The position numbers and the translations under genes were made by a program. DNA of 64,000 bases from Candidatus Hydrogenedentota bacterium (lineage in GTDB: Bacteria > Hydrogenedentota > Hydrogenedentia > Hydrogenedentales > SLHB01): contig CAVUWV010000018.1 of assembly GCA_963745075.1 (NCBI GenBank), positions 128,001 through 192,000 on the forward strand. The letters run 5' to 3'. The notes below the pieces were generated by a model. That model searched no databases. It was not told where the DNA came from and was given only the letters and a program-made list of their open reading frames with translations. Positions 54,140 through 64,000 of this stretch are shown in pieces. How positions within the stretch are numbered: position 1 is the stretch's first letter; each line of letters starts with the position of its first letter.

Positions 54140-55207
54140 TCAGGGCGAAGTGATTGGCGCGTTGCCCCCCGCGGTATAGGTAAGCAACCGGTTCTCCCGC
54201 GAGGTGTCTTTCAATTGAACCTGATTCCCGCGGATATCGACCACCTCGAAGCGATCCTGAATTGTGTCGCCTCGGTGTACCTGTACGCTGGACCCCGTTC
54301 TTCCCTGGCCGTTGCGCGCGCTCAACTGGAAGGTTGCCGTGTTGCCCTGTACGTTCTTCAAGACCATCCGGTAGGCAAACGAATCCTGGTCGATTTCCTC
54401 CTTCAACGGGGCGAGCGACGGGTCGATTTTGAAGGCCTGGTTGACCAAGGTAGAGGCACGAGAAAGGTCGTGCTCGGTCCACTGTTGAGGATACTGGGCA
54501 TTGTGGATCATTTCGACGACCCGGGCGCGCGCTTTCTCAACGATGGAACGGTTTTCGGGATGATCCTCTTTGCGCAAGGCTACGAGGGCTTCCTTCAAGG
54601 TTGCCATCGGATCCGCATTGTTCGCGAGCATATCTTCCGCCGGGTTATGGAACTGCCGATCCAGCAAGGGCGCCGGCCGGTTGATGTAGGCGATGACCTG
54701 CCCGCCGCCGAGATAGAGGATGACGATCGCCGCGACGAGCCCGGCGAACACACCGACTTTCCGGATCCAGGAAGGCTGTTGTTGCACAGCCGGGCGCGCA
54801 TAGGAAGGAGGGCTCGATGGCATTGCGAGGGAAGCGAGCGCCTGGCTGCGCTCGTCCAATTCCGGCAACCCCGATTCGTGCTGGGGCGCGTTCGAGTCAA
54901 ACTGTGATTTCTTCTTGCCCCGGATGCCGAACACGGAGCGTTTCGCGGTCGTGTCCTCGGGCGGATTGCTTTTGAATTCCGTCTCGGAACGAAAGGCCTC
55001 CATGGCCTCCATGACACTGCTGGAAGGGGCGTAGTGCTTGATGGTTTCGCCGCCAAGGTCGTCAATGGTGAGGCTTCGTGTTTCATCGCGTGGCCGGCCG
55101 ACATTCTCGCCGCAGAACCGGCACTTTACCGCAAGCACGCTGATCTCCATGCGACAGCTTGGGCATAACCGCATTTTCTCATTATTTCGGGCAGTGCCGG
55201 AATCCAA
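54140..55207 (-). CDS. Zinc-ribbon, single-TM hypothetical protein
   Basis: CPSC...CRFCG N-terminal ribbon; central TM; AGGAGG RBS before TTG. Confidence 0.75.
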   Translation of the reverse strand: MDSGTARNNEKMRLCPSCRMEISVLAVKCRFCGENVGRPRDETRSLTIDDLGGETIKHYAPSSSVMEAMEAFRSETEFKSNPPEDTTAKRSVFGIRGKKKSQFDSNAPQHESGLPELDERSQALASLAMPSSPPSYARPAVQQQPSWIRKVGVFAGLVAAIVILYLGGGQVIAYINRPAPLLDRQFHNPAEDMLANNADPMATLKEALVALRKEDHPENRSIVEKARARVVEMIHNAQYPQQWTEHDLSRASTLVNQAFKIDPSLAPLKEEIDQDSFAYRMVLKNVQGNTATFQLSARNGQGRTGSSVQVHRGDTIQDRFEVVDIRGNQVQLKDTSRENRLLTYTAGGNAPITSP

Positions 55208-55531
55208 TGTTGAGCCTCCTGCCTAGCCGAAATGAACCCGAACGTTCGGCTGTTACGGCTGCTTCGCCCGGCAAAATGGCGCGGCAGCCTTCTCTGCCAT
55301 GTTGCACCCGCGACGGGTGTTGCCAGCACTACCCCCAATCCGGCAGTGGGTCCAAAACCAAGTGCTTCGATGACAATGGCTTACATCAAAACCGCATCAA
55401 GCAGGCTCGCCTGTAACACGGATATAGTAACGGAGAACCTGAAAAATTACAAGTTCTTCCCCGCCAAAGTGCGAACACTCCGTAAACGTTTAATACCATC
55501 TAATGTACAAGAGTTGCATCGGAGAGCCCGG

Positions 55532-56293
55532 TCATCCTTTTCCCAGTATGCGAAGCGTGTCGGAAATCGCCCGATCCAGCGAATCGTTCGTTTCAGGCGA
55601 TACGGGAACCGTCTCGGTGCATCCGCATTCAGAGCACTTAAACGCCCGGCCCGAAACGCCATAGGCTTCACGGACCTTGTACAGCTTCTCCACTTCTTCG
55701 GATTCGAGACGCCGCACACGGCCTAGGAGATGGGCGGTCAGCATGGTTTCCGCGGCATGCTCGATCTTCTCCATCTTGTGGAGGGCGTCGAAGACATCAA
55801 CACCGATGGTCAAGGCGCCGTGCCGGTCCATCAGCAACGCATCGCACTGTCGAATGAGATCCCGAATGGCTTTCCCGCCTTCCGGAGTCGCGGGGGTCGC
55901 ATATTCCGCGGTCGGAACGCCGCCGATGGTGTATACCACTTCCGGTAACACACAATCGGACAAGGAAACTCCGGCCAGCGTAAACCCTATGGCCTTCGGG
56001 GGATGGGCATGGACGACCGCGCTCATCTCGGGGCGCTCTTCGTAGGCCGCGAGATGGGTGAAGAATTCGGAAGTCACCCGCCCGTCGCCGGAAATCTTGT
56101 TGCCCTTGCCGTCCGCGATTACCAAGTCGCGTGGATGCATATAGCCCTTCGAGACGCCGCTGGGCGTGCAGACATAGCGGTCGGGACCAATGCGAGCGCT
56201 GACATTGCCGTCGGTGGCGGCCACCAGGTTCTTCTCATAGAGCCGGCGGCCGGCGTCGCAGATGGCCTTGCGAATGTCCAGTTCCGTCTTCAA
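55532..56293 (-). CDS. Class II aldolase (FucA-like) with C-terminal encapsulation peptide
   Basis: DGNVS, TPSG, SEFFTH, VVHAHP and HGA; tail CSECGC-linker-DSLDRAISDTLRILG (amphipathic helix). Confidence 0.9.
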   Translation of the reverse strand: MKTELDIRKAICDAGRRLYEKNLVAATDGNVSARIGPDRYVCTPSGVSKGYMHPRDLVIADGKGNKISGDGRVTSEFFTHLAAYEERPEMSAVVHAHPPKAIGFTLAGVSLSDCVLPEVVYTIGGVPTAEYATPATPEGGKAIRDLIRQCDALLMDRHGALTIGVDVFDALHKMEKIEHAAETMLTAHLLGRVRRLESEEVEKLYKVREAYGVSGRAFKCSECGCTETVPVSPETNDSLDRAISDTLRILGKG

Positions 56294-56562
56294 TGCTCGA
56301 TCTCCACGTGGTCAACAATACCTACGATAGTACTCCGGACGGGCGCCTCGGGTTCGTTGAACATGAAGCGTGCCGAACTGCCTTCCTGCATCAAGAGTAC
56401 CAAATCCCCCACCCCGGCTTGAACCCGGTCCACCGCAACGAAGGGGGAGCCTTCCTCGGCGCCGTCCAGATCGACGTGTTTGACCATGAAGGTCTTCTGT
56501 CCCCGATAGAAGGAGTGCTTTTGCGTGGATATCACCTGTGCGACTACGCGGGCCAATTTCAC
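56290..56562 (-). CDS. BMC-P pentamer (EutN/CcmL family)
   Basis: MKLARVVAQVISTQKH, VAVDRVQAGVGD, EGSSAR and IVGIVD. Confidence 0.92.
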   Translation of the reverse strand: MKLARVVAQVISTQKHSFYRGQKTFMVKHVDLDGAEEGSPFVAVDRVQAGVGDLVLLMQEGSSARFMFNEPEAPVRSTIVGIVDHVEIEH

Positions 56563-56981
56563 GTGGCTGACCTTTCTCGATTCAATCCCTGACGCTTTAC
56601 CCGCGTCAACCAGCCGCTAGTGGCCCCATAGAGAGCGCCCAAGACAAACCATTGAATCCCGCCGGCGAATAGAACGTAAAGTGCCCAAAGCAGCGGCGTG
56701 ACCTTCACGTAGTGATCCAACCGGAGTATCGCGTTGATAAGAAGAATAGGAAAATCGACCAATAGTAACATCTGGTCCTGCCATCGTACCGTGTGTGAGA
56801 AAATTTCACCATCCCACATGAGGATCGGGACAAACAACGTATGCACGACTGCAAAACCGACCCCACATCGTAGCGGTCTCCGGGGAACCCATTCCCTTAA
56901 TATGCGTGACCAGTACTCGGACGTGAGGTAAAGGGACGCGAAAACTACGAACAACGCGCAGATGGTTACCCCGTCGGCCAT
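56559..56981 (-). CDS. Small hypothetical membrane protein (3-4 TM) inside the BMC operon
   Basis: Hydrophobic 140 aa ORF; GAGGA RBS; its TGA overlaps the GTG of the next BMC-P (GTGA). Confidence 0.65.
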   Translation of the reverse strand: MADGVTICALFVVFASLYLTSEYWSRILREWVPRRPLRCGVGFAVVHTLFVPILMWDGEIFSHTVRWQDQMLLLVDFPILLINAILRLDHYVKVTPLLWALYVLFAGGIQWFVLGALYGATSGWLTRVKRQGLNRERSAT

Positions 56982-57088
56982 TAGCTTGCTCGTTCCTCTT
57001 CAACCAACACGGACGTTTGGAATCACCAACCCTCAATTATTAGACGCTTTAGACCCCGGAAAGGTGACATTTGTTCGGAGCCGGCTGC

Positions 57089-57352
57089 TTATTGCGTCAC
57101 TTCATCTACAATGGCGACAATCGTCAAATCCGCCGGATTGAACTTGTCCGGCAGGGGAAACGTCGCTTCACGTCCCTGCGCCATGAAGACCCGCTCCCCT
57201 TGGTTAACGCCGATGGCATCGCAGGCGATGACGGGCTTTCCCACGGCTTCACTATGCTCGTCAATAGGCTGGACGATCAGGAACTTCACGCCCTGAAACG
57301 CGTCGAGCCGCTGACTCGCGACCAGCCGTCCAATGACCTTACCGGGTATCAT
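57089..57352 (-). CDS. BMC-P pentamer (EutN/CcmL family)
   Basis: GKVIGRLVASQR, ACDAIG, QGREA and DLTIVAIVD. Confidence 0.9.
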   Translation of the reverse strand: MIPGKVIGRLVASQRLDAFQGVKFLIVQPIDEHSEAVGKPVIACDAIGVNQGERVFMAQGREATFPLPDKFNPADLTIVAIVDEVTQ

Positions 57353-57358
57353 TCTGCC

Positions 57359-57917
57359 TTACCACGCATGCTTCTTTGTCAGATATTCGTAAATTTCCGG
57401 ATAGGGGTTAGGAATCACGACGCGCTCGACCAAGTCTGCGCCCGCGATGGCGGCTCCCGCGTCGACCGAAGCCTCCACGTCCGCCACGTCGCCCACGAAG
57501 GTCGTGTACCCTTTGCCGCCAATGTGATTGGCGAGGTGAAGCACAATGAGCGTGATGGGCGCGGCCTTGCATGCGGCGTCGGCAGCCTCGACAATCATGG
57601 CGGCGGACCGGGTCTCGAGGACGCCGACGGCGTCGAGCTTCGGAACCGGAGCTTCACCTCGGAGCGCGGGAAGCACCTGCTCGTGGAGGTTGGCCAGCAC
57701 GAACGACTCCACGACGGCGTCAGGGCCGGCCTTTTCGACGCCTGCGCGCACGGCCGCCTCGACGGCCGCGACTTCGCCGGTTAACGAGGGACATGTACTT
57801 GCCGGGCGTAATCGGCCGGGATTCGATGAGATCGACCGGCGCGGCCTTCACCATGGCATCGCTCGCGCGGATACCCGCCGCGATGGTGGTGTATTCGACC
57901 ATGCCTAGAACGGACAT
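57359..57917 (-). CDS. BMC-T single-layer trimer (PduT-like), frameshift at about 57784
   Basis: [27 protein letters not shown] joins TGEVAAVEAAV..LHEQV..GVLET..AADAACKAA..GGKG..GDVADV..VIPNP after removing one A. Confidence 0.88.
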
Positions 57918-57954
57918 AGGGATGCCTTTGCCACGGGACGTGGCGAGAAGCCCT

Positions 57955-57990
57955 TGGACTGAATGGACGATATGGACACTATGGACGAAG
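57955..57990. repeat. Four 9-bp tandem units with a TGGAC core
   Basis: tggactgaa tggacgata tggacacta tggacgaag. Confidence 0.65.
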
Positions 57991-58075
57991 AATACATCAG
58001 GCGCATGCCCCCGCCATTTGAGTGCGTTTCCACTTTAGCATCTTCATCTCCTCCAGCCTCCGGACTCCAGCCTTC

Positions 58076-59419
58076 TCAGACTATCCTAAACGAATCCACC
58101 AGCGTGCACCGGCGTTCGCGGGTGAAGCTGATGGGCGAGGTCATGCCTTCGCCGGTGGGGCTGGCGATGGTGAAGGATGTGTAGCCTTCCCCGCCCATGC
58201 CGAGACCCGCGAAGGTTGGTCCGTTCTTCACGAAGATGGAGCAGTTAATCAGGCGCGCCATCGTACTCAGTTTATCAATGTTGCGGGAGTGCATCGTCGC
58301 CGTGTGGCGGCGACCGCCCTCGTAGGCGACGGCGAGTTCGATGGCCTCGTCCACATTGGACACGCGCACAACAGGCATGACGGGCATGAGTTGCTCGGTC
58401 CAGGGCAACGGGTGGTCACGGTCGACTTCACAGATGGCCAGCCGCGTCTCCGGCGGCGCGTCAATGCCGATTTCGTGGAGGATGAGGTTGGCGTTCTTGC
58501 CGATCCAGCGTTTGTTGATGACACCACAGCGTCCGTCGCGCGACTCGAAGATGACGTCGCAAAGCCGTTCGATGTCTTTCCCCGCGACCTCGACGCAGCC
58601 ATGGGCGACCATGTGCCGCTTCAATTCGTCCGCGACAGCGGCGACGACCACAACTTCTTTTTCCGAGGTGCAGATGATGTTGTTGTCCAGCGATGCGCCG
58701 TCCACGATGTCCTTCGCCGCCTTGGGAACATCAGCGGTCTCGTCGACGACTGAAGGCGGATTTCCTGGACCAGCCGCGATGACCTTCTTGCCCGAGAGCA
58801 TGGCTTCGCGCACCACGCCGGGTCCTCCGGTCACACAGAGCAGCGCAACGCCGGGATGATGCATGAGCGCCTGCGCGGTGGCGATGGAGGGATCGGCGAT
58901 GGCCGTGACAAGCCCGTCGGGTCCACCCGCATCGACCACGGCAGCGTTGAGGACTTCCACGCACCGAATCGAGCACCGCTTGGCACCGGGATGGGCGTTG
59001 AACGCGACCGCGTTTCCGCCGCTGAGCATGGCAATGGAATTGTTGATGACGGTTTCCGTCGGGTTCGTCGTCGGGATGATCGAACCAATGACACCGTGGG
59101 GCGCCCGCTCCATCAGCATCAGACCGTGGTCGCCACTTTTCGCCCGGGGTTCCAAAATTTCCGGGCCGGGCGTCTTGATCGTGACGAGGAGGTTCTTCTT
59201 GACCTTGTCTTCGGGCCGGCCCAATCCGGTTTCCTGAACGGCCAGAAGCGACAGCTCTTTCACATGGGCCATGGCCGCCGCGCGCATGGACTCGACAATC
59301 CGGTAGCGCAGATCGAGCGAGCATCGTTCCATCTGCTCGAAAGCACGCCGTGCCCGCGCGACGGCGTCATCGACGCCGGGTTCGCGTGGATCCGTTACAG
59401 CACTTCCTGTTTCACTCAA
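58076..59419 (-). CDS. CoA-acylating aldehyde dehydrogenase (EutE/PduP family)
   Basis: PTTNPTET, TGGPGVV, AGPGNPP, DNNIICTSEK (catalytic Cys), EQLMP and GEGYTSFTIASPTGEG. Confidence 0.93.
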   Translation of the reverse strand: MSETGSAVTDPREPGVDDAVARARRAFEQMERCSLDLRYRIVESMRAAAMAHVKELSLLAVQETGLGRPEDKVKKNLLVTIKTPGPEILEPRAKSGDHGLMLMERAPHGVIGSIIPTTNPTETVINNSIAMLSGGNAVAFNAHPGAKRCSIRCVEVLNAAVVDAGGPDGLVTAIADPSIATAQALMHHPGVALLCVTGGPGVVREAMLSGKKVIAAGPGNPPSVVDETADVPKAAKDIVDGASLDNNIICTSEKEVVVVAAVADELKRHMVAHGCVEVAGKDIERLCDVIFESRDGRCGVINKRWIGKNANLILHEIGIDAPPETRLAICEVDRDHPLPWTEQLMPVMPVVRVSNVDEAIELAVAYEGGRRHTATMHSRNIDKLSTMARLINCSIFVKNGPTFAGLGMGGEGYTSFTIASPTGEGMTSPISFTRERRCTLVDSFRIV

Positions 59420-59446
59420 GGTCCGAAGGCTTCCTCTGTTTATCCC

Positions 59447-60239
59447 TTACTCGAAGGCGGACGAAACGATGCCGACCACCGCGAGCGTCCCATTATACGT
59501 AAAATGAGCGATCACGCTCGGAAGAATCGAATCATACCGTTGGCGCAGGTAGGTGAACACGGCGCCCATGACGGTAACAACGGCAATCCCGACCCAATCA
59601 CCGTAAAGTTGCGGCGTATGAATCAGTCCAAACCAAAGCACGATGATGCCAAACGCCACCGGAACCCCGGTCAGACGCCGCAGGGACGGGTACACGAATC
59701 CCCCGGTAGTAAATCTCCTCGAACGGCGGTACCAGAATCATCATCACCAAGAACAGGGGCGACAGGGACGGCTCGCCCCCTTCCTCTTCCGGGTTTTGGA
59801 GCGCGAGGTCGATGATGTACCCCTTTCCATTGGCAAAGAAGTACATAAGAAATCCGGCCATCACGGCGGCGACCGCGCCGAAAGCAACACAACGCAATGC
59901 CGTCTTCCACGGGATGGCGCGAACGGCAAAGGCCGTGCGGATCGAATGGCGGTACTTGCGGCACGCGAAATACCAGACCACACAAAGGGTGGCGAACCAC
60001 GACAGCACCAGCGTTGGAAGCAGGTATTCCATACGGGGCGTCATCGCGTTCGGTTGAAAGCCCGACGCAGCGAGCATGATGAAGGCGGTCAGAATGCCGA
60101 GAACGATTTCGACAGCCCAGATGATGCCGATGGCCTTCAGAAAGTCTTTCCAGCCGACGTCCCGAGGAGGTGAAGGCTCGACGACCGGTTGATCGCCTTG
60201 GGCATCGTCCGCAGGTGTGCGTGGCGACTCAACCGTCAT
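59447..60239 (-). CDS. CPBP (CAAX/Abi type II) intramembrane metalloprotease, frameshift at about 59701
   Basis: PPFEEIYYRG (EExxxR), WFGLIH (FxxxH) and AHFTYN (HxxxN). An extra G in a G-run splits ORFs 59598..60284 and 59447..59695. Confidence 0.88.
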
Positions 60240-60525
60240 GCTTGCGCCATTTGGTTTCGCCGTCGAGGTCCCACGAATCGACAATCGCCATGATGACGGC
60301 GTCGCAGGGACGGTCCCGCGTCGCTTCGGTCATGCGCGCAGAACTGCCGGTCGCGACGAGCACGACCTCGCCGACGCCTGCGCCGACGGCGTCGACGGCC
60401 ACCACGTATGCGCCCGTTTCCTTCGCTTCGAGGTCGAGAATGCGCACGACGAGGAGCTTGCGCCCGTCGAGGGACGCTTCCTTCGCGGTGGAAACGACGG
60501 TTCCGGCTACACGGCCAATCTGCAT
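60229..60525 (-). CDS. BMC-P pentamer (EutN/CcmL family)
   Basis: AAGGAG RBS; MQIGRVAGTVVSTAK, VAVDAVGAGVGE, GSSAR and DAVIMAIVD. Confidence 0.95.
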   Translation of the reverse strand: MQIGRVAGTVVSTAKEASLDGRKLLVVRILDLEAKETGAYVVAVDAVGAGVGEVVLVATGSSARMTEATRDRPCDAVIMAIVDSWDLDGETKWRKHDG

Positions 60526-60553
60526 ACTCGCTCCTTCTACCGGCGAAGAATGA

Positions 60554-60717
60554 GGAACATCCCCCTGATCCCCCTTCCAAGGGGGAATGGTTCGTAACGC
60601 TAAGCGTTGCGTTAGGGGCAACGTAGACTTCGGATAACGCGCCAGCGACTACTTGAATACCAATGGCATTCGCTGTGCGCCATTCCCCCTTTGAAGGGGG
60701 ATCAAGGGGGATGTTCC
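60554..60717. repeat. About 165-bp element with about 37-bp terminal inverted repeats (MITE/REP-like), copy 1
   Basis: ggaacatccccctgatcccccttccaagggggaatgg ... ccattccccctttgaagggggatcaagggggatgttcc. Confidence 0.85.
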
Positions 60718-60733
60718 GCCCGTTGTGAATAAA

Positions 60734-61039
60734 CTACCGCTTCGATTCTTTGGCGGCCTCATCTTTGCGGCCCAGGGGCAACGCCGTGTCCACGTTCGTG
60801 TGCGGACGCGGAATGATGTGGACGCTGACCACTTCGCCAACGGCGCGGGCGCCCCGTTCCCCGGCTTCGCACGCGGCTTTGACCGCTGCCACGTCGCCGC
60901 GCACGATGGCGGTCACATAGCCGCCGCCAATCTTCTCGTAGCCGACCAGTTCCACCTTGGCCGCCTTGACCATGGCGTCGGACGCCTCGACCATCGCGGC
61001 GAATCCCCGCGTTTCCACCATTCCCAGTGCATCAGCCAT
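60734..61039 (-). CDS. BMC-H hexamer shell protein
   Basis: [46 protein letters not shown]. Confidence 0.97.
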
Positions 61040-61158
61040 CGCGTTTCTCCCGTTAACCCCTGCAAACTTGTAATGCCATGTTTGGGCAGACTCTTAAACC
61101 CTGCCCCGCTATCTTAATCGGAGACAGCAGAGACTACAGCGACACCAGAGACGTGAAC

Positions 61159-61785
61159 TCAACGTCGCTCCACATCGCGGCCGGAGAGACCTTCGAGCGA
61201 ATGGATCGCGGCTTCGCTGCCGACAACCACGTCCGCCTCTTCACCGCCGAGGTAAAGACGCCCGAAGTTGCCGAAAGGCCGAATGTCGACCAGGGTAACC
61301 CGGCTCGCCTTCTCCGCCTCGTTGGCTGCCAGTATAGCGTAAAGGGCGGGCTGCGTCTCCAGAATGAATAAGGTCTGCCCGGCGAGGAGCATGGACCCAC
61401 TCCGATTCTTGTTGATGAGTGAGGCGTGGTACGGGTCGACCTTGCGGATGACTGTGCTGGACGCGATGCGCGGTTTCTGGCGGTCGGACTCTTTCAGTCC
61501 AAGCGCATCGAGGACAGCCTGGCCGGCTTGGCGGACGTTGGCCTGAGATTCGGAGTGAACCTCGAGAGTCCCGAAACTCCGTTCGACGACCTGGATGGCG
61601 GGCCGCACGTCGGTCGCTTTCACGGCGATGTCGAGCAGCCGAACGATTTCCATTCCCGGCGCGACTTCGACAAAAAGATTGGCCATCCCCGCGACGGGCA
61701 TGTAGCCCTGCACGGTGGAGGCCATGAAGGAAGCCAATTGCTCCTGCAAACTGTCGAGAATGATGTAGCTGCGTAACTCCGCCAT
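61159..61785 (-). CDS. BMC-T double-stacking permuted trimer (CsoS1D/CcmP-like, BMC-Tdp)
   Basis: LRSYIILDSLQ, VEVAPG, QVVERSFGTLEVH, LINK, LETQPA..AANEAEKA and FGRLYL. Confidence 0.92.
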   Translation of the reverse strand: MAELRSYIILDSLQEQLASFMASTVQGYMPVAGMANLFVEVAPGMEIVRLLDIAVKATDVRPAIQVVERSFGTLEVHSESQANVRQAGQAVLDALGLKESDRQKPRIASSTVIRKVDPYHASLINKNRSGSMLLAGQTLFILETQPALYAILAANEAEKASRVTLVDIRPFGNFGRLYLGGEEADVVVGSEAAIHSLEGLSGRDVERR

Positions 61786-61852
61786 GAACCTCCGTATGAA
61801 CTTCTCGCCTTACAGTCTTCGCGCATCTGCGAGTTGCAGGGCTTTCGAATTC

Positions 61853-62014
61853 ACATCCCCCTTGATCCCCCTTCAAAGGGGGAGATGTGACCAATTCCGT
61901 CGATAGATATATTCTGTTGCGCTTCGCCCAGAACGTCGGCACTTCGTTGGCCGCAATGCGCAACGCAAAGCGTTGCGAACATTTCCCCCTTTGAAGGGGG
62001 ATCAAGGGGGATGT
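61853..62014. repeat. About 162-bp element with about 36-bp terminal inverted repeats, copy 2
   Basis: acatcccccttgatcccccttcaaagggggagatgt ... acatttccccctttgaagggggatcaagggggatgt. Confidence 0.85.
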
Positions 62015-62052
62015 TCTTCAAATCTCGTTAGTACAACTCCGCTACCTAGCGA

Positions 62053-62985
62053 TCAATATACCGGCGTGCACCAGTGGGCATACTTCGCGACTTTGCCCTG
62101 AACGATCTGGAAATACAGTTCCTGCAACTTCTTCGAGATCGGACCCGGCTCGCCGTTGCCGATCTTCCGGCGATCCACGGATCGGACGGGAGCAACCTGC
62201 GCGCCGGTGCCGGTGAAGAAGACTTCATCGGATACATATAACTCGGTGCGTGAGATGGAGCGTTCGATAACCGGCAACCCCAACTCCTCCGCCGCGATCT
62301 GCAGGACGGTATTGCGCGTGATACCCACGAGGATATCGGCCGTGGGCGGTGTGGTGATGAGGGTGCCGTCCTGCACGATGAACAGGTTCATGGCGCTGCC
62401 TTCGGCGACGCTACCGTCCTCGCGGAGGAAAATGGCCTCGTCAAACCCGGCCTGTTTGGCTTCGCTCGACGCCAGGGAGGAATTGATGTAGCTGCCGACG
62501 GTCTTGGCGCGGCTGGGAATGGCGTTGTCGGACAAGCGCCGCCAGGACGACACGACGACGTCGAGTCCGGAATCAATGTCGACGTAGTCGCCCAGCTTCA
62601 TGATCCAGCAACAGAAACTGCTGTCCACGTCGTGGAGCTTGGGTCCCAGGGAGTGTTCGCACTTGTACCCGATGGGCCGGATATAGACCCCCTCGCGGAA
62701 TTCCGACCGCTTGACGAGTTCGACGCAGATCTTTTCGATCTCTTCCCGGGTCTCGTTGACGTTCATGCACAGAATGGAGAAGTTGCGCACGAACCGGTCC
62801 ACGTGTTCCTTGAGCCGAAAGATGAGGATGTTGTTGTTGTCCGGGCAATGATAGCCGCGAATCCCCTCGAACAGCGCCGTTCCATAATTAAAGGAATGGG
62901 TCAGAATGCTCACGTTGGCCTTCTCGATGGGGACGTACTCCCCCTCGAAATACGCAATCGGACCCGGTTCCATCTTTTTCGCCAT
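62053..62985 (-). CDS. ilvE: Branched-chain amino acid aminotransferase
   Basis: YGTALFEGIRGY, RAKTVGSYINS, EGSAMNLF, ILVGITR and EVFFTGTGAQV; ATG at 62985. Confidence 0.93.
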   Translation of the reverse strand: MAKKMEPGPIAYFEGEYVPIEKANVSILTHSFNYGTALFEGIRGYHCPDNNNILIFRLKEHVDRFVRNFSILCMNVNETREEIEKICVELVKRSEFREGVYIRPIGYKCEHSLGPKLHDVDSSFCCWIMKLGDYVDIDSGLDVVVSSWRRLSDNAIPSRAKTVGSYINSSLASSEAKQAGFDEAIFLREDGSVAEGSAMNLFIVQDGTLITTPPTADILVGITRNTVLQIAAEELGLPVIERSISRTELYVSDEVFFTGTGAQVAPVRSVDRRKIGNGEPGPISKKLQELYFQIVQGKVAKYAHWCTPVY

Positions 62986-63225
62986 GAATACGACTCCCCA
63001 ACTAAGGGCGCACGGCCCTTGGACTTTCGAAAACCCCGGCCTGGAGCAAGTAAGGACACCTATTCGACCCAACCCGGCTCCATGCACACGCGGACCGGGC
63101 ACTTGCGCTCAGTCGCTGCACGCGGGATCGTACCACTCTAGTCGCGGCGATGCACGGAGTCAATTCTGGGCAGGGTGGCGGTACGGGGATAGACGGTATG
63201 GACGGGAGCGATGACCGGCGGAGGC

Positions 63226-63261
63226 ACCGGTCCCACAACCGGTCCGACAACCGGTCCCACG
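63226..63261. repeat. Three 12-bp tandem repeats
   Basis: accggtcccaca accggtccgaca accggtcccacg. Confidence 0.75.
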
Positions 63262-63334
63262 CATGGCACGATGCACGTCACCCACGGCGGCGACTTAAAT
63301 CATGCACTTCCGGCACATGTTTACCATTTTCCTG

Positions 63335-63364
63335 TTGACATACTCATTACTATCGTGCTAGAGT
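63335..63364 (+). promoter_or_regulatory. Putative sigma70 promoter
   Basis: TTGACA-18 nt-TAGAGT with a TG extended -10. Confidence 0.5.
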
Positions 63365-63429
63365 TCTTCTGTTGGGCGGCGTGTCTATGGGGTTTGAGCA
63401 GTGATTTGGGTGCAGGCGGTAACGTAGAA

Positions 63430-64000
63430 ATGGGGGAGCGTGTAATTAAAAAAATACTATGGATCCGGGGATCTAACAAGAGTTTCCCAGCGATGGGCAT
63501 TCTGGCGCTGGCACTTACCGCGGCTCTGGCCATCCTTCCCGCCGCAGCCACTGAACTCAATGAGAGCGATGCGGCCATCGCATCGTCGCTTATCGGAAGT
63601 ATTGAGAACCTCGCGCCGGACGAGACTCCGAGGGTTCGAGTGGACAATCGCGGGGTTGTAACCCACTTCGCCGCGCCGCGAGGACGTTCCATGACCGTAG
63701 AAGGGGCGCTGCCGGACGACGGCAAAGACCAGCGGGCGCTGAAATTCGTCGAAACCCACGCGCAAGCGCTGGGGCTCGCCAGCGACCGTGTCTCCCTGAA
63801 CGTCCACGCCATCACGACGACCCCGGAACGTTCGTATGTGCGCATCCGGCAACAGTACGACGGGATCCCCGTCCACGGCGCGGAAATCGTCATGCAGATC
63901 CAGCCGGATGGCACGGTGAAGTCTTTTCTGGCGGATATCATGACGGAAACCGTCGGCTTGGACGCAGACCCCGCGTCCACCGAACCGGCGCTGGGTGCGT
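63430..64000 (+). CDS. Secreted M4/M36 metallopeptidase precursor (FTP propeptide), runs off the window end
   Basis: Manual translation: signal peptide MGILALALTAALAILPAAA, then ALKFVETHAQALGL...SYVRIRQQYDGIPVHGAEIVMQI (FTP-domain signature). The start may be 63493. Confidence 0.75.
   Translation, partial: MGERVIKKILWIRGSNKSFPAMGILALALTAALAILPAAATELNESDAAIASSLIGSIENLAPDETPRVRVDNRGVVTHFAAPRGRSMTVEGALPDDGKDQRALKFVETHAQALGLASDRVSLNVHAITTTPERSYVRIRQQYDGIPVHGAEIVMQIQPDGTVKSFLADIMTETVGLDADPASTEPALGA

Follow-up and report, generated by a model that had tools for sequence, protein, structure and literature searches.

Among described bacterial microcompartments (BMCs), the closest to the system considered here are the PVM and PVM-like aldolase-type loci. 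These types (PMC8217296; PMC4207490) share three BMC-P genes, a BMC-H gene, tandem BMC genes, an acylating aldehyde dehydrogenase (AldDH) and a class II (pfam00596) aldolase with an operon found in a 64,000-nucleotide (nt) stretch of DNA from a Candidatus Hydrogenedentota bacterium (contig CAVUWV010000018.1; hereafter the window, whose numbering is used unless a locus or contig is named). This minus-strand operon lies in the last 10 kb of the window and is a PVM-related aldolase/AldDH microcompartment operon. It departs from PVM-type loci in that PduL/PTAC was not found in this 89.7% complete genome, and in that two membrane-protein genes are embedded in it. One of these, TM140, encodes a 140-residue protein without a family; the other, located between a BMC-P gene and the AldDH gene, encodes a CPBP/Rce1-like intramembrane protease and is the subject of the present work.

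In the supplements of the BMC catalogue PMC8217296, 'Hydrogenedentes' appears 12 times (10 in file 3 and 2 in file 4), with FRAG6 and FRAG7 loci and a FRAG7 row among the passages. A term search of the main text of this catalogue returned no 'protease', 'membrane protein' or 'CPBP', and a search of its supplements, by term rather than row by row through the locus tables, no PF02517, CAAX or CPBP entry. Full-text literature searches likewise yielded no paper that reports an intramembrane protease, CPBP/CAAX or other, from a BMC locus. The statement of the initial annotation, that no described BMC type has such a protease as a component, is hence congruent with the literature and with the catalogue at the level of search terms.

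Described relatives of the protein itself provide a further frame of reference. SpdC of Staphylococcus aureus has lost its catalytic residues, whereas CPBP proteins of the window type keep all of theirs. The SpdC structure (6u0o) was the second-best structural match to a predicted model, at a probability of 1.0 and a TM-score of ~0.5, and provides a precedent for holding a soluble partner, the glucosaminidase SagB. Similarity to the Rce1/CPBP family (PF02517, 4cad) extends to a Pfam match above cut-off, motifs on transmembrane helices and a predicted polytopic helical fold; on the other hand, a prenylated CAAX substrate is not to be expected in this bacterium, and the gene is embedded in a microcompartment operon. 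The same superfamily includes the myxosortase-type CPBP proteases (MrtX, MrtS and MrtJ), which cut C-terminal sorting signals (PMC11980579; bioRxiv 10.1101/2023.06.07.544157). The MrtS, MrtJ and Mrt_core models however matched the window type only weakly, over the catalytic helices, scoring 25-37 bits where the cut-offs are 75-130. The locus revealed no protein carrying a C-terminal sorting tag; no genome-wide search was aimed at such tags.

The CPBP gene and its product

Judged by its sequence, the gene is a genuine one for a polytopic CPBP/Rce1-like (glutamic-type) intramembrane endopeptidase of ~263 amino acids (aa), with proteolysis predicted from the family. Our preferred reading, to which we attach a probability of roughly 0.6, is that it is most probably intact and represents a lineage-specific accessory or hitch-hiking gene in a variable slot, dispensable to the microcompartment and under relaxed but real purifying selection. 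From the open reading frame (ORF) list and the sequence, the gene runs from an ATG at 60239 to a TAA stop at 59449-59447 on the same strand as BMC-P, AldDH and the rest of the operon. Its start, in a frame reading MTVESPR..., is located inside the 3' end of the BMC-P gene with an overlap of 11 nt, and 27 nt separate its stop from the AldDH start (TTG 59419), which is exactly the geometry given in the initial annotation.

The family is recognized by the motifs EExxxR, FxxxH and HxxxN/D. All three, as previously claimed, are present, at 59720-59703 (EEIYYR), 59632-59618 (FGLIH) and 59506-59492 (HFTYN), with the qualification that they are spread over two frames, the first motif in an N-terminal and the other two in a C-terminal part. 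By hydropathy, the N-terminal part consists of ~38 predicted cytoplasmic residues, three transmembrane helices and an acidic loop, followed by EEIYYR. The C-terminal part matches Pfam PF02517 at 3e-13 and 50.3 bits (cut-off 22.4) over profile positions 26-92 of 93, and the N-terminal part, holding only positions 1-25, gives no match on its own. Every orthologue tested scored 62-69 bits against this profile, and orthologues and homologues together 55.7-87.4 bits.

Conservation and structure prediction point in the same direction. In an alignment of 26 subfamily sequences (numbered after the orthologue of genome G003), the invariant positions are E184, Y187, R188, G189, H216, R241 and S246, and E183, F212, H254 and N258 are shared by 90% of the rows or more. 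An AlphaFold2 model, generated for the G003 orthologue rather than for the window's own protein, reached a pLDDT of 87.7 and a pTM of 0.82, and displays seven long helices with the motifs on helices 4, 5 and 7. For this model, the top two PDB entries in Foldseek were the two structures with a CPBP fold, Methanococcus Rce1 (4cad) and SpdC, with probabilities of 0.99-1.0, TM-scores of ~0.5 and an E-value of 0.12. Regarding more specific assignments, no equivalog cut-off was reached in NCBIfam (best match the CPBP domain of ABC_perm_CPBP, 62.7 bits against 435), PADLOC-DB 2.0 returned no family at E<=0.01 for three orthologues, and Pfam detected no BMC/EutN shell domain in the protein. The N-terminal helix, W.DL..A..IIW, was considered as an encapsulation peptide and ruled out, being conserved in non-BMC homologues too.

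Because of the gene overlaps and abutment, co-transcription and translational coupling of CPBP with its neighbours are expected, and the layout suggests that it is probably transcribed and translated with the operon upon microcompartment induction. By analogy to the family, the protein would then insert into the cytoplasmic membrane, where a Glu-Glu-Arg/His/His-Asn site would cleave a substrate in a peptide segment close to the membrane; no such substrate is identifiable in the locus.

The frameshift and the rate of change

The two-frame arrangement stems from one extra G in the minus-strand run CGGGGGATT (59704-59700), where four in-frame orthologues read CGNGGNTT. A 188-nt read-derived contig from the public run X1, spanning 59584-59772, has one base fewer at 59700 and is otherwise identical. 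The assembly was also checked more broadly, by mapping the ORFs (150 aa or longer) of the relatives' syntenic DNA onto the genome over C18:170-212 kb. Here, 4 of 23 gene regions proved to be split over frames compared with intact orthologues, with five shifts in total (two or three of the 23 rows being antisense artefacts). The second tandem-domain BMC gene at 57359..57917 differs by a 1-nt insertion from the intact orthologues (185-225 aa) of G002, G003 and G004, and its extra A is probably another assembly error; the contigs of runs X1-X4 cover neither this site nor most of the operon. Beyond the window, genes at C18:198180-200821 and C18:201000-202030 are split over two and three frames, respectively, against intact G003 orthologues, and the assembly is therefore regarded as indel-prone. 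Thus, with orthologues in frame, a read-derived contig one base shorter and similar splits in neighbouring genes, the G5 frameshift is probably an assembly error, and the CPBP gene intact in the organism. A true inactivating frameshift, named beforehand in the initial annotation as a reason to abandon its proposal, is contradicted by the X1 contig.

A conserved programmed ribosomal frameshift was excluded, considering the four orthologues in frame at the site and the X1 contig without the extra base. More generally, it is highly improbable that the production of active protease is governed by programmed frameshifting or by phase variation at the G run. The break does fall in a homopolymer between motifs 1 and 2, and L117, a metagenome copy, is broken at a T run some ten codons further on. 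However, the two breaks are at different sites, the other examined copies are in frame without a run at this place (G002-G004 read CGC/CGT GGC/GGA), and similar breaks occur in unrelated genes of the assembly. Runs of 5-6 bases are also short for slip-strand switching.

The gene changes 3-6 times faster than its neighbours. In the closest pair, G003-G004, the ratio of non-synonymous to synonymous substitution rates (dN/dS) is 0.42 for CPBP (dN 0.050, dS 0.118) versus 0-0.05 for five neighbouring genes, and between G015 and G112 dN amounts to 0.55 for CPBP versus 0.08 for AldDH. Between the window and G002, the catalytic C-terminal part has a dN/dS of 0.08. Selection constrains the gene where it matters and leaves the rest free to drift.

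These rates also bear on the notion that the frameshift is real and the gene a passenger heading to loss, as in sister lineages. The ratio in the closest pair is congruent with such decay, as are the replacement of CPBP by other genes within genus g11 and the existence of two frameshifted copies (the window and L117), each broken at a homopolymer shortly after motif 1. We nevertheless consider it unlikely, as the read-derived contig represents an intact and otherwise identical allele, nearby genes of this assembly that look essential show the same kind of split, there is no second lesion, and the C-terminal part is strongly constrained.

Occupants of the junction across Hydrogenedentota

We searched 135 Candidatus Hydrogenedentota genomes with the AldDH, counting sequences of at least 70% identity as orthologues, and read the DNA from BMC-P to AldDH in each of the 22 genomes that have one. 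CPBP is not found throughout loci of this type. It occupies the slot in six genomes of related, uncultured soil bacteria, namely the window genome (G000), G002, G003 and G004 of genus g1, and G015 and G112 of genus g11. An unrelated gene for a soluble protein of 165-180 aa, without a family, is present in three (G012, G113 and G114), and a HepT/MntA toxin-antitoxin pair in one (G111). In 11 genomes, including G030, the only one of another family, there is nothing between the two genes, which overlap or are separated by no more than 92 nt, and in the remaining genome, G119, the region is rearranged with BMC-P not upstream. The slot thus displays three types of occupant within genus g11 alone. 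Apart from the window genome, the five CPBP genomes carry an intact gene (264-272 aa) at the same place; a CPBP start following BMC-P in G001, on a fragment cut by the contig end, comes in addition to the six. The overlap with the BMC-P stop measures 11 nt here and 16 nt in the second genus, and the CPBP end abuts or overlaps the AldDH start.

The initial annotation had offered two readings, processing or tethering of a shell or cargo protein at the membrane, or a passenger insertion, and had looked to homologous loci for a decision. The outcome is divided: CPBP is conserved at the position in 6 of 22 loci and in two genera, while BMC-P directly adjoins AldDH in 11. The survey hence favours the passenger, although one that is not a one-off. 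With CPBP at the same junction in two genera and its catalytic residues kept, it is therefore taken as a stable, probably co-expressed operon member in the subclade. In a quick AldDH tree of 20 rows, the slot changes state at least five times, with the empty state basal. Furthermore, a profile of the in-slot CPBP proteins (E<=1e-8) did not detect the subfamily in G111, G113, G114 and G012, the genomes with the slot otherwise filled, and the microcompartment locus therefore persists without CPBP. The ancestral junction would accordingly be one with BMC-P directly coupled to AldDH, which in one subclade may have been filled and refilled with unrelated genes: CPBP, the soluble 165-aa protein and HepT/MntA.

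The other occupants raise the question of whether the slot gathers selfish or defensive genes, with CPBP acting in immunity as part of a self-protection or conflict cassette. Members of the CPBP family have long been annotated as bacteriocin self-immunity or 'Abi' proteins, with a role in bacteriocin immunity. The HepT/MntA pair of G111 sits in the identical slot, its MntA resembling the candidate defence family PDC-S09 of PADLOC, and both the rapid turnover of occupants and the fast sequence evolution of CPBP would fit. Conversely, CPBP, the 165-aa gene and TM140 are all without a PADLOC match, the window CPBP has no neighbouring gene for a bacteriocin, a toxin or a mobile element, and homologues in other phyla are found among housekeeping genes. 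Weighing these aspects, such a cassette appears rather unlikely. The 165-aa gene occurs in 4 of the 135 genomes, with three copies in the slot and that of G021 away from BMC genes.

A scan of the genome collection recovered 34 CPBP loci, five of which, all in Hydrogenedentota, repeat the operon context, and a metagenome scan added three more operon copies, all close to that of G112. In G080 (L051; also L085/L100) the order is aminotransferase, CPBP, aldolase and zinc-ribbon protein, and there is no BMC domain anywhere in the genome. The backbone of class IV aminotransferase, aldolase and zinc-ribbon protein is conserved in 5 of 8 loci of BMC-less relatives (L131-L138), the other three being without the aldolase; the shell/AldDH block is therefore a present-or-absent insert at a junction of this backbone. 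Other Hydrogenedentota homologues are found by URO-D-like genes (G116 and G122) or by HisG and NDK (G098). Sixteen full-length homologues from other phyla, 28-40% identical, are accompanied by no BMC gene within the flanking DNA retrieved; their metagenome-assembled genomes are labelled Planctomycetota, Phycisphaerae, Proteobacteria, Polyangiaceae, Acidobacteria and uncultured bacterium. At the 9 of these 16 loci with annotation, the neighbours are unrelated genes, including MscK, FliM, FTCD, QRPTase and SPFH. CPBP genes in unrelated contexts, mentioned in the initial annotation as an observation that would speak against a microcompartment role, are thus seen among the more distant members of the subfamily. 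In a quick subfamily tree, for which the two window parts were joined with an X at the break, the six BMC-embedded copies group together on one side of a branch whose support is only 56, and adding the G080 copy to this group is not rejected (p-AU 0.44). The sequences are compatible with a single origin of the embedded copies.

On the other hand, the protease could be a dedicated accessory in g1 and g11, produced in step with BMC-P and anchoring the organelle at the membrane or trimming shell or cargo, for example a cargo protein now that the AldDH of the clade has lost its N-terminal targeting helix. The position and the overlap with the BMC-P stop are conserved in two genera with the catalytic residues kept, TM140 represents a second membrane protein in the same g1 operon, and the AldDHs of the slot-variable clade are all without the IEAVVRxV helix that five more basal orthologues possess. 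The structure of SpdC with the soluble enzyme SagB (6u0o title) shows that the CPBP fold can act as a membrane scaffold. However, 15 of the 22 loci of the same type are without CPBP in the slot (and one more is rearranged), four of them holding other genes in genomes that are without the subfamily entirely. The AldDH helix is also lost in empty-slot genomes (G024, G013, G115, G118 and G021), CPBP evolves far faster than every adjoining BMC gene, and there is no BMC-specific CPBP feature other than a loop insertion, itself present in two non-BMC homologues. A complex prediction for BMC-P, AldDH and CPBP of G003 gave no answer (score 0.01, mark 0.32) and constitutes no evidence either way. Aggregated, these observations leave a dedicated role improbable.

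Returning to the preferred reading of a dispensable, most probably intact gene, several findings weigh against it. The intact X1 contig has a depth of only 2.6, from a run that is not necessarily the source sample, and L117, a genus g11 gene, carries a homopolymer indel (T6 to T5) ten codons past motif 1, which may reflect occasional real inactivation in some strains or populations. In addition, CPBP is kept at the exact junction, with the BMC-P stop overlap, in two genera despite 34% identity, more than would be expected of a neutral passenger. Finally, TM140 is a second membrane-protein gene inside the operon in genus g1, which could indicate a membrane-linked variant of the organelle.

The surrounding operon and its implications

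The features of the operon and of the alternative slot occupants are compiled in the table. All five BMC-domain matches of the genome are in this locus, and orthologues of the BMC-P preceding CPBP are 80-91% identical in relatives. A promoter and terminator scan of 55000-63500 gave three promoter-like signals versus 2.3 expected and nine terminator-like versus 6.6, with nothing notable around BMC-P, CPBP and AldDH.

Table. Coordinates of the CPBP gene, the microcompartment operon and other occupants of the slot
Feature	Coordinates	Strand	Basis or remark
Class IV aminotransferase	62053-62988	-	Operon member
CcmP-like tandem BMC shell gene, 208 aa	61159..61785	-	Pfam PF00936; NCBIfam CcmP model 273 bits, below cut-off 340
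BMC-H shell gene	60734..61039	-	Pfam PF00936 8.4e-30
BMC-P (EutN/CcmL pentamer)	60229..60528	-	Directly upstream of CPBP; Pfam PF03319 (EutN_CcmL) 1.1e-29
CPBP gene, both parts	59447-60239	-	Between BMC-P and AldDH
CPBP N-terminal part, frame A	59700..60239	-	Ends EEIYYRG; ORF list, alignment with intact orthologues, hydropathy
CPBP frameshift site	59700..59704	-	5 G where 4 keep frame; DNA alignment with 4 orthologues, read-derived contig
CPBP C-terminal part, frame B	59447..59698	-	FxxxH, HxxxN, TAA; Pfam PF02517 and alignment
Acylating AldDH (BMC-type)	58076..59419	-	Pfam PF00171 1.5e-33; NCBIfam PRK15398 627.6 bits, cut-off 403
Second tandem-domain BMC shell gene, split	57359..57917	-	Extra A at ~57781
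BMC-P, second	57089-57352	-	Operon member
TM140, 140-aa membrane protein without family	56559..56981	-	4 predicted transmembrane segments
BMC-P, third	56290-56562	-	Operon member
Class II aldolase	55532..56293	-	Last gene of BMC block; Pfam PF00596 5.3e-45
ZnRib355, single-pass zinc-ribbon protein	54140-55207	-	Downstream of aldolase
Soluble 165-180-aa slot protein	L027:2853-3353; L028:2796-3335; L036:931-1425	-; -; +	Two genera; YKVYLT..LARLAG.VF.. near N terminus
HepT/MntA pair, G111 slot	L030:2811-3450	-	Pfam PF01934 and PF01909; MntA similar to PADLOC candidate defence family PDC-S09, 1.8e-32

An N-terminal helix resembling an encapsulation peptide (..IEAVVRxV..) was observed in the AldDH of G120, G022, G023, G019 and G030 (L034, L035, L038, L040 and L041), and is missing in the other 15 orthologues, including that of the window (59330-59419) and all with an occupied slot. 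The aldolases adjacent to BMC genes possess a C-terminal extension of ~30 aa (55532-55630 in the window) with CxxCxC and a terminal amphipathic LDxAIxDTLxILGxG helix, which resembles an encapsulation peptide. In six BMC-less genomes, the orthologous enzymes (221-230 aa) do not have this extension. ZnRib355 was assessed as a candidate substrate or regulator of CPBP and rejected, being found in 51 of 54 genomes of the family regardless of BMC or CPBP. Two elements of ~168 nt are located in intergenic spaces of the operon (60551-60717 and 61853-62020), with terminal inverted repeats of 30-36 nt built on CCCCCTT..AAGGGGG hairpins, and at least 28 copies of at least 140 nt are present in the genome.

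TM140, for which neither Pfam, NCBIfam nor PADLOC provided a family, separates two BMC-P genes which, in most relatives, directly adjoin or overlap each other. Its position is shared by G003 and G004 only (48-56% identity), and G002 has no copy. Together with the protease, it allows a more speculative proposal, namely that the microcompartment is membrane-associated in one Hydrogenedentota lineage, with an active protease, produced in step with the vertex protein BMC-P, and TM140 (g1) docking or maturing the organelle at the cytoplasmic membrane; we regard this as distinctly doubtful. If true, sugar uptake would be linked to encapsulated aldehyde metabolism in what would be the first membrane-coupled metabolosome, and the BMC-P/AldDH junction would represent a cassette site for swapping organelle accessories. 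Should the protease indeed act on the organelle, this would be the first case of a metabolosome linked to a membrane.

If CPBP is instead a passenger, as we favour, the locus calls for caution, since a position in the core of an operon, and even translational coupling, need not mean membership of the encoded machine. Equally, most apparent pseudogenes of this assembly are artefacts. The slot itself then becomes the more interesting element: a single junction in an otherwise rigid BMC operon, with at least three unrelated occupants in one genus, in a setting where gene turnover within an operon is rarely documented. It could also serve as a natural insertion-tolerant site for the engineering of these organelles.

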